From positions 25,048,001 to 25,112,000 of the forward strand of contig NC_090345.1 in NCBI RefSeq assembly GCF_035084215.1: a stretch of 64,000 bases of DNA, given 5' to 3'. This DNA comes from Heptranchias perlo. Taxonomy: Eukaryota. Positions within the stretch are counted from its first letter, which is position 1. Each line of letters begins with the position of its first letter. Below the pieces are notes generated by a model that saw only the letters and a list, made by a program, of their open reading frames with translations, was not told where the DNA came from and ran no database searches. Shown piece by piece: positions 16,626 to 64,000 of the stretch. The position numbers were made by a program, and so were the translations under genes.

Positions 16626-17733
16626 GCGGGGCGGCTCAGCGGAACACGAGGCGCCGGCGGGGCGGCTCAGCGGAACACGAGGCGCCGGCGGGGCGGCTCA
16701 GCGGAACACGAGGCGCCGGCGGGGCGGCTCAGCGGAACACGAGGCGCCGGCGGGGCGGCTCAGCGGAACACGAGGCGCCGGCGGGGCGGCTCAGCGGAAC
16801 ACGAGGCGCCGGCGGGGCGGCTCAGCGGAACACGAGGCGCCGGCGGGGCGGCTCAGCGGAACACGAGGCGCCGGCGGGGCGGCTCAGCGGAACACGAGGC
16901 GCCGGCGGGGCGGCTCAGCGGAACACGAGGCGCCGGCGGGGCGGCTCAGCGGAACACGAGGCGCCGGCGGGGCGGCTCAGCGGAACACGAGGCGCCGGCG
17001 GGGCGGCTCAGCGGAACACGAGGCGCCGGCGGGGCGGCTCAGCGGAACACGAGGCGCCGGCGGGGCGGCTCAGCGGAACACGAGGCGCCGGCGGGGCGGC
17101 TCAGCGGAACACGAGGCGCCGGCGGGGCGGCTCAGCGGAACACGAGGCGCCGGCGGGGCGGCTCAGCGGAACACGAGGCGCCGGCGGGGCGGCTCAGCGG
17201 AACACGAGGCGCCGGCGGGGCGGCTCAGCGGAACACGAGGCGCCGGCGGGGCGGCTCAGCGGAACACGAGGCGCCGGCGGGGCGGCTCAGCGGAACACGA
17301 GGCGCCGGCGGGGCGGCTCAGCGGAACACGAGGCGCCGGCGGGGCGGCTCAGCGGAACACGAGGCGCCGGCGGGGCGGCTCAGCGGAACACGAGGCGCCG
17401 GCGGGGCGGCTCAGCGGAACACGAGGCGCCGGCGGGGCGGCTCAGCGGAACACGAGGCGCCGGCGGGGCGGCTCAGCGGAACACGAGGCGCCGGCGGGGC
17501 GGCTCAGCGGAACACGAGGCGCCGGCGGGGCGGCTCAGCGGAACACGAGGCGCCGGCGGGGCGGCTCAGCGGAACACGAGGCGCCGGCGGGGCGGCTCAG
17601 CGGAACACGAGGCGCCGGCGGGGCGGCTCAGCGGAACACGAGGCGCCGGCGGGGCGGCTCAGCGGAACACGAGGCGCCGGCGGGGCGGCTCAGCGGAACA
17701 CGAGGCGCCGGCGGGGCGGCTCAGCGGAACACG
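16626..17733. repeat. Perfect GC-rich minisatellite, 31-bp unit GCGGGGCGGCTCAGCGGAACACGAGGCGCCG x 35.7
   Basis: 35 full units plus 23 bp; no variant unit seen; 25/31 GC and 6 CpG per unit. Confidence 0.99.
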
Positions 17734-19899: not shown

Positions 19900-20560
19900 T
19901 ACTGCACCATTCCCCGCACCCTGGCTTTCCCCAGGTGGCAGGCAACACAGAAGGCAGGATCCCGCCGCTCAACTTAACCAGTCTGCGCTCGCTCTCTCTC
20001 CCGATGCTGATGAACCTTATTTTTCTTTCTATACAAATTGACACGTGGACACTCCCAGTGTTCACACTGATATAGGGCGGCGACCACTCGCTGAATAAAC
20101 GGGGAAGTGGCCAGACCAGGAGTGAATAAACCGGTTCCAGCGCTCCTTTTGCCCGGCGGGGGGGGAGGGACGAAAAATACGGTAGCACAGACCCGTCCGC
20201 CTCACAGCTGCCCCTGGCCGGCCAGGATTTCGAGACGAGTTACAATTAACCGGGCCGGAATCGCCCGACTCTAGGTGGAACCCGACCAGAAGCCCGGGTG
20301 TCCGGTCCATGCTGTGCCCTGCTCCGGTCCATGTCTGACTCACCTCCAGCCAATCTTTGCTACTGCGGCTGCTTGCTGCTTCCGATCTCAATTGAGCGAG
20401 ACCGCGCGCGCTCGCAACGACCGTTTAAATAGCCGCGAGAGTCCGCGTGCACGGTCCATGCGACGGCCGCAGCGTCACCGTGCGTGCTGGGTGAGCGCGC
20501 CGCCGGTTGAATTTATGGAGCTGCGTCAGCAACTTGGCTTTTATGCAGCGACAGAGTGAA
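19900..20560 (-). promoter_or_regulatory. OAT: CpG island: OAT main promoter and non-coding exon 1 (about 20400-20344)
   Basis: Dense CpG. On the minus strand: TATTTAAA at 20431-20424, TGACGC CRE half-sites near 20475 and 20525, strong donor GAG|GTGAGT at 20344/20343. Confidence 0.75.
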
Positions 20561-21398
20561 GTGGCGAAGGGGATGATCAAATCTGATGCATTGACTGGCT
20601 TTACATAGACTTGATGAAATGTTAACTCTGTTTCTTTCTCCACAGATGCTGTCTGATTTGCTGAGTATTTCCAGCATTTTCTCTTTTCACAAGCTGTTTT
20701 TTTAAATTTTACAAAGAAACGCAAACGATTTCGGCTATTTTTTTTTCTCTGAAAGGTTGACTTACGTGGCATCTGTCAGGCTAGACTTGTGAACACTTCA
20801 CGTATCAAATACTATTATTTGGATCTGTGGCATAAGATCATGTGGAAAATTCGCTCCCCACCCTTTAAGTAGCGACTGGAGAGTAATTTACAAGGTTGTG
20901 CAAATCTAGGAGCAAAATATTACCGTAGAAATTCGGCCACGTTAACTTCGCTTTGAGTTCTGCTCCAATGTCTGGAGATGCACTTACACTGCAGTTACTG
21001 GTAGCTACAGTTTAGGTCCTAAGCTACAGAAGTGTATTTACATTGCCTGACTGCTACCTGGTAGGAGCGGCCTTCCTTGGGGGAGCTCAGTGCACTTGCT
21101 TGGATACAGGTGCCAGCAGGGATTTCTCCCACAACAATGGAAAACTTAAATGTTTAGAAAGCAGGAAGGAAAATAACCCTGCTCGTTATACAATTAAGTT
21201 GAGGTTAGGTAGGTTTACAACATACCCAAGAGATTCATTAGACCCTTGAGCACTTTGCAAACCAGGTTTAATACTGCACTGGAGTTACATTCTATGTTGT
21301 GTCAAACCAAGATGTGGAGATGCCGGTGATGGACTGGGGTGTACAAATGTAAGGAATCTTACAACACCAGGTTATAGTCCAACAGTTATATTTGAAAA

Positions 21399-21435
21399 TC
21401 ACAAGCTTTCGGAGGCTTTCTCCTTCGTCAGGTGA
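21399..21435 (-). ncRNA. Minimal hammerhead ribozyme motif (opposite arm)
   Basis: Reverse complement of 21513-21549. Confidence 0.78.
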
Positions 21436-21512
21436 GTGTCGAGATTCATTGAAAATGATCGCATATATAGTCATAGAACTTTATGAATCTCGATTTCAAT
21501 GAATCTCGACAC

Positions 21513-21549
21513 TCACCTGACGAAGGAGAAAGCCTCCGAAAGCTTGTGA
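21513..21549 (+). ncRNA. Minimal hammerhead ribozyme motif
   Basis: UCAC-CUGACGA-A-GGAG/AAAGC/CUCC-GAAA-GC-UU-GUGA. Confidence 0.78.
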
Positions 21550-22079
21550 TTTTCAAATAAAACTGTTGGACTATAACCTGGTGTTGTAAGATTCCTTACA
21601 TGTGTCAACCCAAAGCAGTTTGAGACTTACTCCTCTGTGGAGTTTTGCTGTGCTTTGCTATGGCCAGTTCATGTGGTGATTTACACTGGCAGCTTGCAAT
21701 AGCTAAAATCAATTTAAACTGACAGTAAATTTGCAATATAAATGTACCTAAGATTGGACTCTGAAATCAAAGCAAATTGGGAACAAATGTAAGTTGAGCC
21801 TTTTAAGGGCTTCTTAAGCACTAATTAATGTAGCACGTGAATGAAAGAAAGAATATATTCCACTAGCTTATGCTGCAATCACTGATTTACTGTGGCAAGA
21901 AAGTGATCTTAATAACTTTAACTGGCACAGTTCTGCCTGAATCACATGTGCTGCTTCTCCCCACCCTGACTCATGTTTCTCTGCCTATCCACCTTAAGTG
22001 GGTTGTTTTGTAAATGGTGAGTCACTGTGAGGCAGCAAACTCAATACAAATAAAATGATTTACATTTCAATTGTTGCAG

Positions 22080-35620: not shown

Positions 35621-36268
<648 letters not shown>

Positions 36269-50007: not shown

Positions 50008-50396
50008 AGAAAGAAAGACTGAACTTGCATTTATCTAGCGCCTTTCATGACCTCAGGATGTCCTAAAACGCTTCACAGCCAATTAAGTACTTTTTTGCAG
50101 GGAACTCAGTAGCCAATTTGCACACAGCAAGGTCCCATAAACAGCAATGAGCTAATCACCAGATCATCTGCTTTAGTCATGTTGATTGAGGGATAAATAT
50201 TGGCCAGAGAGAGCTCAGCTGATTTCCTAATAGTGTCATGGGATCTTTTATGTCCATCTGAGAGAGCAGACAAGGCCTCGTTTAACCTCCAACAGTGCAG
50301 CACTCCCTCAGTAATGCACTGAAGTGTCAGCCTAGATTAAGTGCTCAAGTCTCTGACTCAGAGGTGAGATTGTGACAACTGAGCCAAGGCTGACAC
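50008..50396 (-). mobile_element. Deu-domain SINE (internally deleted)
   Basis: Reverse homolog of 50939-51392. Confidence 0.85.
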
Positions 50397-60247: not shown

Positions 60248-61016
60248 TTGATATTTGGGCTGCAACTCTGTCGTTCTGACTTCCCAGTTGAGTGTATGTG
60301 AAATGCAGCATTTACATCAGTGAGTAATATTTTCTTGTGTGAAAATATCTCGAGCACTCTTATTTTCACAGCTGTGAATATTTAGTAGAAACTGGTTTGG
60401 TCAGAAATAGGAGGACCTATAGTCTGCATAACTTGAAGCCCATTTGTGTTATGAGGTGTGGAGTAGATACATTTGAAATCTGTTCCTTGGGAAGCAATTG
60501 CGGAAGTGTAATTCTCCCACTTTTCACTCATTAAGCATTTCACTCAAACCTGATTTTCAATTGAATATTGATTTCATGAGCGGTTATCAAATCAAATGTC
60601 AGAATCCAGGGTGTTACACTTTGTTCTCTGCATTGGCACAGATCCACCAAAGAACATTTGACTGGGCATGGACCACAGCCTGGTGTGTTTAGGCTTGTAA
60701 GTCAGTTGGAATCGGCTGCACAAATGATTGTGGAACCCAGTTTTCTGCATGAATTATGCCAAGTGAAATTGGATTTAATATGATCTAAACCAGTTTCTAA
60801 ATCACTGTGTTTAGATACTTGCGTTCATAGCTACCGCTTTCATGGATCAAAATTGCACAGTTTGATGTACAATTTCCCAAATTTATTTATTTTTGCTTTA
60901 CAAGGTAAGAGATCTTAGTGCTAAGAAATGATGTGGAGATGCCGGTGATGGACTGGGGTTGACAATTGTAAACTATTTTACAACACCAAGTTATAGTCCA
61001 ACAATTTTATTTTAAA

Positions 61017-61057
61017 ATCCACAAGCTTTCGGAGGCTTCCTCCTTCCTCAGGTGAAT
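61017..61057 (-). ncRNA. Minimal hammerhead ribozyme motif (opposite arm)
   Basis: Reverse complement of 63092-63132. Confidence 0.8.
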
Positions 61058-61317
61058 GTGGAACTGAAACCCTCGAACCTATCGCATTTATAAATCACAG
61101 AACAATGCCTGGTGATTACAGAGAGTCTTTTCAACTGCCCGTTGCCAAGGCAACCAAAGTGTTCAGACAGATAGGTGTTACCTACAGGCCCACCGAATAT
61201 ACAAATGTCCAGAACTAAAAAAACAGATGATGTGGAGATGCCAATTAAAAAAACAGAGCGAGAGAGGTAGAAACATAGAAACATCCGGAAGGAAAAGACA
61301 GCAATTGACCTGTTATA

Positions 61318-62580
61318 TTAAAAACAGATAACATTTGTTCGCTGGTGGGCTAACGTGTAGCGTGACATGAACCCAAGATCCCGGTTGAGGCCGTCCTCAT
61401 GGGTGCGGAACTTGGCTATCAATTTCTGCTCGACCATTTTGCACTGTCGAGTGTCTCGAAGGCCGCCTTGGAGTACGCTTACCCAAAGGTCGGTGGCTGA
61501 ATGTCCTTGACTGCTGAAGTGTTCCCCGATTGGGAGGGAACCCTCCTGTCTGGCGATTGTTGCGCGGTGTCCGTTCATCCGTTGTCGCAGTGTCTGCATG
61601 GTCTCGCCAATGTACCATGCTCTGGGGCATCCTTTCCTGCAACGTATGAGGTAGACAACGTTGGCCGAGTCACAGGAGCATGAACCATGCACCTGGTGGG
61701 TGGTGTCCTCTCGTGTGATGGTGGTATCTGTGTCAATGATCTGGCATGTCTTGCAGAGGTTACTGTGGCAGGGTTGTGTGGTGTCGTGGATGCTGTTCTC
61801 CTGAAAGCTGGGTAATTTGCTGCAAACGATGGTCTGTTTGAGGTTGGGTGGCTGTTTAAAGGCGAGTAGTGGAGGTGTGGGGATGGCCATAGCGAGGTGT
61901 TCGTCGTCATTGATGACATGTTGAAGGCTGCGGAGAACATGGCGTAGTTTCTCCGCTCCGGGGAAGTACTGGACGACGAAGGGTACTCTGTTGGTTGTGT
62001 CCCGTGTTAGTCTTCTGAGGAGGTCTATGCGATTTTTCGCTGTGGCCCGTCGGAACTGTCGATCGATGAGTCGAGCGTCATATCCCGTTCTTACTAGGGC
62101 GTCTTTCAGCGTCTGTAGGTGTCCATCGCGTTCCTCCTCGTCTGAGCAGACCCTGTGTATTCGCAGGGCCTGTCCATAGGGGATAGCCTCTTTGACGTGG
62201 TTAGGGTGGAAGCTGGAAAAGTGGAGCATCGTGAGGTTGTCCGTGGGCTTGCGGTAGAGTGAGGTGCTGAGGTGCCCGTCTTTGATGGAGATTCGTGTGT
62301 CCAAGAAAGAAACTGATTCTGAGGAGTAGTCCATGGTGAGCTTGATGGTGGGATGGAACTTGTTAATGTTATCGTGTAGTCTCTTTAGTGATTCTTCGCC
62401 GTGGGTCCATAGAAAGAAAATGTCGTCGATGTATCTGGTGTATAGCGTTGGTTGGAGGTCCTGTGCAGTGAAGAAGTCCTGCTCGAACTTGTGCATGAAA
62501 ATGTTGGCGTATTGGGGTGCGAATTTGGTCCCCATGGCTGTTCCGTGTGTTTCGGTAAAGAACTGGTTATCGAAGGTGAA
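61318..62580 (-). pseudogene. Penelope-like RT (C-terminal part) plus GIY-YIG endonuclease; frame uninterrupted but 5'-truncated
   Basis: GTAMGTKFAP, RYIDDIF, LYRKPTD, CxxxxCxxC linker, NVVYLIRC...YIGET...RMNGH, GLNRD. Confidence 0.93.
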
Positions 62581-62770
62581 CCAGTTGAACCAGGAACACT
62601 TCTCACCACGATGGACGTCTCGGCACTCTACACCAGTATCCCCCACGATGATGGTATCGCTGCGACAGCATCAATACTCAACACCAACAACAGCCAATCT
62701 CTAGACGCCATCCTACAACTCATCCGCTTCATCCTGGATCACAATGTCTTCACCTTTGATAACCAGTTTC
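62581..62770 (+). pseudogene. Inverted upstream piece of the same RT (motif A)
   Basis: Plus strand reads PVEPGTLLTTMDVSALYTSIPHDDGI...LIRFILDHNVFTFDNQF, the segment that should precede the minus-strand ORF. Confidence 0.9.
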
Positions 62771-63091
62771 TTTCTTGGGTTCATGTCACGCTACACGTTA
62801 CCCCACCAGCGAACAAATGTTATCTGTTTTTAATATAACGGGTCAATTGCTGTCTTTTCCTTCCGGATGTTTCTATGTTTCTACCTCTCTCGCTCTTTTT
62901 TTAATTGGCATCTCCACATCATCTGTTTTTTTAGTTCTGGCCATTTGTATATTCGGTGGGCCTGTAGGTAACGCCTATCTGTCTGAACACTTTGGTTGCC
63001 TTGGCAACGGGCAGTTGAAAAGACTCTCTGTAATCACCAGGCATTGTTCTGTGATTTATAAATGCGATAGGTTCGAGGGTTTCAGTTCCAC

Positions 63092-63132
63092 ATTCACCTG
63101 AGGAAGGAGGAAGCCTCCGAAAGCTTGTGGAT
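63092..63132 (+). ncRNA. Minimal type-I hammerhead ribozyme motif (Penelope pLTR)
   Basis: AUUCAC-CUGAGGA-A-GGAGG/AAG/CCUCC-GAAA-GC-UU-GUGGAU: core boxes, stems I and II, palindromic AAGCUU stem III. Confidence 0.8.
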
Positions 63133-64000
63133 TTTAAAATAAAATTGTTGGACTATAACTTGGTGTTGTAAAATTGTTTACAATTGCTAAGAAATGGAAC
63201 ATTTTACCCATATCTGGCACCTTGTGTGAGGATCAAGTGCTTCCAAGTGAGACGTAGCAGTGAATAGCTTCTTCCAGTCTTCCCCATCCTTGGAAAACCC
63301 CTTGCTGCATCAATATGGCATTTTTTTCCATTTCTGTGGGATTTCTGAGTGAGGTTATCAAATCGGAGATGATTTTGTGCTTTGGGCCCATGCTTGCCAA
63401 GAACTGATTTCACATAAGTCCATCGCAGACGGAGGTGACTTTTCATCCCATCAGTCTGAACTGGATCCATCCAATTCCCTCACCAGATTTTAGATGTGAT
63501 AATTTACCATTAATAAAATTGAGAGCCTCTGGACTTGGCCAGCAGCAGTAAGTAATGACACAATTCTAGTTTGCCACACAAGTTTAAAGGAATTTTATTC
63601 TGAGGTTTATACCAAGTAGTGCTACCTGGTCAAATGTTCCAAATGGAGAACATTTATATTCTTTAGCATCTAGCAAAGCGTGAGCAACTCTTCTGTCTCT
63701 TCCAGTTTGCATCTGAAAATGAATGAATTTGTCCAAACCTCATTCACTGATGTAGATCACTTTCAACACCCACATACCCATGGCATAAAGGGGTCATGGA
63801 ATTTAGATTTACACAAGGTCAGTTGGGATAGTACAGTAATTGTCATAATGCTTACCTGTTCTGGGGCAATAACAAATGCTTTTCATTATTTGCACATGAC
63901 TGAGCGTGGCAGATGCTGACAGCCAGCAGATGTGTAGAATTCTGGGTGATTTGTAAGGAGTTGCACATCTGACGTTCAGTAATTGCATTGTGGGACATCA

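Follow-up and report, generated by a model that had tools for sequence, protein, structure and literature searches.

A near-perfect inverted repeat with a hammerhead motif in each arm lies upstream of the OAT gene in Heptranchias perlo (contig NC_090345.1). The window, i.e. the whole 64-kb stretch of DNA that was analyzed, covers positions 25,048,001 to 25,112,000 of that contig. The locus raises the question of whether such a hairpin is one truncated insertion of a Penelope-like element (PLE) or a member of a non-autonomous family that amplifies as a unit, with ribozymes that act on both strands.

The paired arms (21347–21454 and 21494–21601) are 108 nt each, with a sole mismatch at 21388. 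The 290-base hairpin is predicted to fold at −208 kcal/mol (z −30.8 versus 200 shuffles), and arms like these have a chance expectation of about 1e-53 in 64 kb. The 108-bp arms with one mismatch, 39-nt spacer, tail of about 36 nt and 12/13 target-site duplication (TSD) of the original prediction were all borne out by exact comparison. The spacer (21455–21493) is not a neutral loop: residues 21455–21479 continue the pLTR and include a TATA-like box, and 21480–21493 are filler. The features of the locus, and of a related copy in the window, are as follows.

21298..21310, no strand: left copy of the TSD, identical at 12 of 13 positions to 21601–21613; the family mode is 12 nt.
21311..21346, minus strand: unpaired tail of 36 nt, the putative interval between two priming sites.
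21347..21479, minus strand: arm of the proposed first cDNA, a pLTR or 5' leader with its sense on the minus strand, pairing with the right arm up to 21454.
21397..21437, minus strand: minimal type I hammerhead with 4-bp stems I and II, an extra A after A9 and a palindromic stem III; cleavage is predicted between 21403 and 21402.
21462..21469, minus strand: TATA-like box of the pLTR, a putative promoter with a predicted start at about 21439, directed towards OAT.
21480..21493, plus strand: junction filler of 14 nt, an imperfect direct repeat (family D12) of the 16 nt with which the right arm begins.
21494..21601, plus strand: arm of the proposed second cDNA, an inverted, tail-less pLTR copy with its sense on the plus strand, identical to the long copy L082 at 108 of 108 positions.
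21511..21551, plus strand: the other minimal hammerhead, with cleavage predicted after 21545.
21601..21613, no strand: right copy of the TSD, whose first base is common to the TSD and the arm.
60930..63187, minus strand: insertion of a sister subfamily with the same build, consisting of a tail, an arm of 1.65 kb that retains the 3' half of the RT/EN frame, an inverted segment of 194 nt, a tail-less inverted arm and a 10-nt TSD.

The window copy derives from an EN+ PLE. Its match, the natural long copy L082, carries RT/EN frames and is identical at 166 of 169 positions over 21311–21479 by exact comparison. Identity as a MITE was ruled out, as the hairpin is without terminal inverted repeats (the tail is on one side only) and its sequence is that of a PLE leader. 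The copy at 60930 shares the first 30 nt exactly and diverges past the ribozyme, which supports its assignment to a sister subfamily; it is not, as had been proposed, of autonomous type, since it is truncated (about 1.65–1.8 of 3.08 kb) and internally inverted.

Each arm holds an intact hammerhead core with stems I and II, as had been claimed (21437–21397 on the minus strand and 21511–21551 on the plus strand). Stem II is kept in 41 of 44 distinct intact-core variants from 100 sampled termini, with 4–5 pairs and compensatory changes. Stem III of the window hammerheads consists of a single base pair around a 2-nt palindrome; therefore, neither motif folds fully as a monomer. Since the two motifs are head-to-head on opposite strands, a tandem dimer within one transcript is impossible. 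An Rfam scan of the 64-kb window (E≤1) returned no hammerhead, as expected for so minimal a motif, and gave two weak mir-7973 matches elsewhere. A 71-nt near-perfect hairpin at 50325–50395 has a weak mir-7973 match far under the gathering score.

A transcript through the hairpin in either direction contains the antisense arm first, and forcing stems I and II to form is calculated to cost 67 kcal/mol. For an RNA begun at the retained TATA box, hammerhead folding costs 3 kcal/mol, and stem III still needs a partner. By these folding models, the full hairpin RNA would hold both window hammerheads within its duplex, which would make them passengers. A ribozyme on each strand is a trivial outcome of any inverted copy, and some hairpins of the family end before reaching the ribozyme. 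Additionally, the antisense of the ribozyme 5' edge (21425–21437, plus strand) has, in most subfamilies, the form of a consensus splice donor (CAG/GTGAGT or GTAAAT), and intronic family copies could serve as cryptic splice donors.

The 3.25-Gb genome contains at least 43,266 copies of the family's 29-nt terminus, exact matches only being counted, or one per 75 kb. At 1,136 places the terminus runs on into ATGACTACC, the start of a 902-aa frame. The terminus thus continues directly into the start codon of the ORF, so that the tail forms the last part of the 5' leader. The frame is intact twice in tandem array L127, and the tandem period is 3083 bp (L127/L128). A reverse transcriptase was identified by Pfam (RVT_1, E 3e-10). 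The GIY-YIG endonuclease, which the Pfam scan did not score, was recognized by its YIGE and Cys/His motifs, and relatives carry PF01541. The linker (residues 753–785) contains an extra Cys motif, C-x4-C-x2-C ... C, of the kind that marks Neptune and Nematis in the accessible text of PMC8557442; by this motif before the endonuclease, the protein appears Neptune/Nematis-like. Its nearest named relatives are from sharks first and turtles next.

Insertions of EN+ PLEs are described, in the available portions of PMC8557442, PMC3846280 and PMC8969392, as a pLTR with an adjacent inverted, 5'-truncated copy and a 30–40-bp tail. The source element has a single ORF with RT and C-terminal GIY-YIG, and tandem units that form pLTRs; the family's insertions have a tail of about 36 nt at one end, an inverted 5'-truncated copy and a TSD. 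Several near-identical full-length tandem arrays (L127/L128, L132–L134, L155–L157 and L160–L161), some of them head-to-head, are probably recent source loci.

The insertions were sampled as the first 100 termini on one contig (C1, first 7.1 Mb); the exact 29-mer required for inclusion favors young copies. Removal of 7 internal tandem junctions and 6 local duplicates, second ends or parts of a two-tailed complex left 87 independent insertions, including two that were reclassified as hairpins and two ends that were placed by hand. An inverted arm is present in 60, 15 have a single arm and 12 are of undecided form. The length is 350 bp or less in 43 of the 60 inverted-arm insertions (43/87 overall), and the hammerhead core is reached in both arms of a short insertion in 29/87. 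Short fold-backs are thus the usual product of the family. Genome-wide, at least 11,242 loci carry exact head-to-head ribozyme halves 30–60 nt apart, and the longer ribozyme spacing of the window copy's class is found at 31 loci.

The original prediction had offered two alternatives, an extreme 5' truncation of a PLE with an inverted pLTR and an amplifying retrozyme-like family, whose rod-shaped RNA would cleave in both polarities and be mobilized by the Penelope RT. Many copies with the same junction had been expected of the latter. At up to 2 mismatches, the 28-nt junction of the window copy matches nowhere in the genome but at its own locus; being unique in 3.25 Gb, it indicates no amplification of this copy. 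Among the best 40 of 1,747 candidates from a DNA search were other hairpins of 275–350 bp. Junctions differ in the 18 other hairpins listed, apart from one pair that has its flanks in common and a few joined at a similar microhomology, and the 20 nearest arm relatives retrieved are insertions of other lengths. A sample of 45 short hairpins contained 44 distinct junctions, the shared one sitting on two subfamilies.

Some junctions do recur (308 copies of one and 3 of another), which would suit a retrozyme-like family, as would the two intact cores and the origin of animal retrozymes from pLTRs reported in the accessible part of 10.64898/2026.07.22.740005. The 308-copy junction, however, is both polarity-symmetric and polyphyletic. 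The tailed arm is the longer in 161 copies and the tail-less arm in 147 (binomial p 0.46). Three stem II haplotypes were found in 15 loci of each polarity, at 9:5:1 and 8:6:1 (two of the 30 loci share flanks), and the two arms are concordant in haplotype at 30/30 loci. Both polarities and three haplotypes at one junction indicate repeated formation, since a master hairpin would keep one of each; later inversion between arms could blur polarity, not haplotype. Moreover, the window element has no head-to-tail repeat and one ribozyme per strand, and both ribozymes are predicted to be sequestered in the hairpin RNA. The hairpin also lacks the ORF-start sequence, which, by analogy with the Anolis protein, would be needed in the template (PMC11167929, sections available). 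Mobilization of the hairpin as a retrozyme-like unit is therefore extremely improbable, and the amplifying-family reading is largely refuted for the window copy; the 5' truncation with an inverted pLTR stands.

The way in which the inverted arm arises can be approached from the insertion ends. The TSD is 12 nt in 26/55 insertions (range 10–17), the inverted arm begins 37–40 nt from the terminus in 49/58, and in 58/87 the target end and the ORF start have 2 nt or more in common. The joining of both target ends at fixed RNA sites 36 nt apart fits twin priming. In such a mechanism, the enzyme would make a staggered double-strand cut in the target, and each target 3' end would prime reverse transcription on the element RNA, one at the start codon and the other about 36 nt upstream. 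Both cDNAs would extend towards the RNA 5' end and would be united head to head by host end joining, via microhomology or a short templated filler. Templated fillers are typical of polymerase-theta repair, and we note a resemblance to these in the 14-nt filler of the window copy, which repeats the start of the right arm. At L178, L189, L141 and L046, hairpin arms enclose 40–200 nt of unrelated or flank-derived filler, a capture during end joining. In L080, an older copy of the window's subfamily, two younger mini-insertions with their own TSDs are nested at 247–456 and 658–822 from the terminus. As described in the accessible part of PMC11167929, a PLE protein, predicted to be a dimer, cuts and extends both strands in vitro; it starts at two adjacent internal RNA sites that bound the tail, and ribozyme cleavage is dispensable. 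A literature search that reached few subscription papers turned up nothing published on PLE hairpins in sharks, twin priming by PLEs or start-site run-off.

The inverted arm could also come from a single cDNA that folds back and copies itself, or from self-priming on antisense RNA, either of which would still leave the copy a dead end. Arm pairs are of identical haplotype in 22/35 cases, compared to a mean of 3 under random pairing, suggesting that each pair stems from a single RNA or a single source locus. This concordance, the 30/30 loci above and the microhomology at many junctions are compatible with fold-back, and self-priming on an antisense template is the preference stated in the available text of PMC3846280. 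The arm lengths (n=52) are difficult to reconcile with it: the tailed arm is longer in 14 insertions, the tail-less arm in 21 (by about 2.8 kb in L208), and the two are equal in 17. One cDNA folding back is thus excluded as the maker of the 21. The fixed start at 37–40 with target microhomology and the extension of both strands in vitro (PMC11167929, in part) also count against fold-back. So does L140, in which each arm has a different existing haplotype, the two being distinguished by three linked sites, indicating that two RNAs are sometimes used. Fold-back or self-priming is accordingly judged quite improbable. Arm-to-arm gene conversion was considered as a source of the shared variants; these mostly fit subfamily haplotypes, however, and arms differ at 35/2897 sites. 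Counted against twin priming are the 15/87 insertions without an inverted arm and the 12 of undecided form, as well as recombination between arms, which, by later inverting the spacer, could even out polarity and arm asymmetry. Overall, there is a high probability that the window hairpin is a single truncated Penelope-like insertion, likely twin-primed and likely unable to move again.

Arm ends bear on why most products are so short. Counted from the terminus, 60 of 145 arms end at 123–142 and 31 extend past 300. A pile-up at the ribozyme cut (position 92) was looked for and was not found, with 5/145 arms ending at 85–96. A TATA-like box is present in 29/33 long copies at position 156–168, and the sequence between box and ribozyme varies. 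Arm ends track the position of the box (rho 0.44, n=77), although assigning short arms to subfamilies by near-end sequence is partly circular. The median end is 124 with the box at 156–159 (n=13), and the mode is 138 with the box at 165–168 (10/33). For the subfamily with the box at 167–168, genome-wide counts fall from 4,761 to 2,437 across 138–142, a drop for which sequence variation could partly account, and to 2,059 across 143–147. The pile-up about 30 nt downstream of the box suggests, from sequence, run-off at an mRNA start 29–31 nt past it. Most templates would be mRNAs begun at the pLTR TATA promoter, and both cDNAs would run off after 125–140 nt to leave a 200–280-bp hairpin, longer copies arising only from read-through RNA. 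The arms of the window copy extend to 169 and 144 nt from the terminus, beyond the predicted transcription start, so this copy falls in the rarer class and would itself derive from read-through RNA. A rotifer pLTR with a TATA box and Inr is described in the accessible part of PMC3846280.

Stalling of the RT at the 5' edge of a folded hammerhead, or a splice site, might also end short arms at about 125–140. The ends cluster just beyond helix I, at whose 5' end a D. virilis intron terminates (PMC4209133, text available), and subfamilies with the box at 160–163 are diffuse, with ends spread over 119–160 and a broad TATA-to-end distance. The end of helix I, however, is constant at about 127 across the subfamilies, whereas the peak shifts to 138 when the box is at 167–168, and alignment by eye showed no conserved AG acceptor there. 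Stalling or splicing is thus unlikely as the cause.

The position of the hairpin next to OAT was also considered. The OAT exons are on the minus strand, with Pfam Aminotran_3 in four of five frames tested and ornithine aminotransferase as the best solved match. A CpG island spans about 20000–20750, and the start predicted from sequence at about 20400 places the hairpin about 0.9 kb upstream, as originally proposed. Co-option of the copy to promote or regulate OAT from upstream might be argued from the retained TATA box (21469–21462), which has the same strand as OAT and lies about 1 kb ahead of it, and from the 3 kcal/mol estimate, by which RNA begun at the box would not sequester the ribozyme. 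With one terminus per 75 kb genome-wide, however, closeness to OAT is unremarkable; the copy's 3 differences in 169 from L082 mark it as young, and just 10 nt of native sequence are left upstream of the box. Co-option is very improbable. Contigs (four sets, one sample, small shares) aligned to 20000–21800 only through repeat-derived pieces and showed neither start nor end sites there.

Other features near OAT include a short high-copy repeat at 20615–20690, 0.2–0.3 kb upstream of the predicted OAT start, where contigs continue into a different hammerhead-like core; this suggests that a second pLTR family left a decayed fragment here. A perfect GC-rich tandem array (16626–17733; 31-bp unit, 35.7 copies, 100% identical) is located in what is probably the first OAT intron. 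A homeodomain exon (35621–36268, minus strand, PF00046) is presumably NK1-like, judging from the OAT neighborhood.

The window locus is ordinary, with a known architecture that is not that of a retrozyme; the population matters more than the locus, as it gives a testable mechanism. On a slight preponderance of the evidence, we favor reading the more than 11,000 hairpins as a fossil record of PLE integration, in which a dimeric enzyme would use both ends of a 12-nt stagger, one RNA and sites 36 nt apart, with cap run-off (strong-stop) at about 130 nt. If true, this would explain the inverted pLTR, the tail, the need of tandem arrays for full copies and the thousands of orphan minimal hammerheads, and ribozyme cleavage would have no part in most insertions. 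The family is young and has intact sources, and its clean insertions number in the tens of thousands, so such models can be tested directly against the ends of the arms, their polarity and their haplotype concordance. The near-perfect short palindromes, at least 11,242 in number, might also give rise to dsRNA, small RNAs and cruciform instability, and annotation tools may misname them as MITEs, microRNA hairpins or retrozymes.

In L1 twin priming, reportedly described by Ostertag and Kazazian in 2001, the second target end primes a second cDNA and the joint shows microhomology, both as proposed here. The L1 second primer lands upstream and inverts without duplicating, whereas here the site is fixed and the same sequence is recopied, which yields a palindrome.

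Canonical EN+ PLE insertions, as given in the accessible text of PMC8557442 and PMC3846280, share with this family the tail (36 nt here), the inverted tail-less pLTR, the TSD, the TATA-like box and a tandem GIY-YIG source. They differ in that here the two arms alone remain, minimal hairpins being the commonest product (43/87), with ends tied to the TATA box. Such a predominance is not described in the available sections of these two papers, which state the origin of PLE inverted repeats and tails as open.

PAc/Poseidon of Anolis carolinensis, studied in vitro (PMC11167929, consulted sections), fits the window family in the cutting and extension of both strands, the two starts bounding the tail and the dispensability of cleavage; the steps after priming are left unvalidated there. 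By subtraction from its figures, the PAc start is 85–92 nt downstream of the hammerhead cut, compared to 92 in the window family. The PAc starts are 111–118 nt inside the ORF, in contrast to the start codon here, and the extra Cys motif that precedes the endonuclease in the window family's protein sets it apart from PAc.

Minimal hammerheads of metazoan PLEs (PMC4209133, accessible part) have an extra base between 9 and 10.1, a G10.1–C11.1 pair and a palindromic 15.2–16.2, and need a dimer. The extra base, the pair, the palindrome and the thousands of dispersed copies are common to the window family, but the window hairpin has its two copies on opposite strands, head to head. Animal non-LTR retrozymes (10.64898/2026.07.22.740005) resemble the window hairpin in being pLTR-derived, non-coding and 200–400 bp long with a type I hammerhead. 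They are, however, head-to-tail repeats with at least two same-strand ribozymes (10.64898/2026.07.22.740005, as accessible), whereas the window hairpin is head-to-head, single and unamplified.
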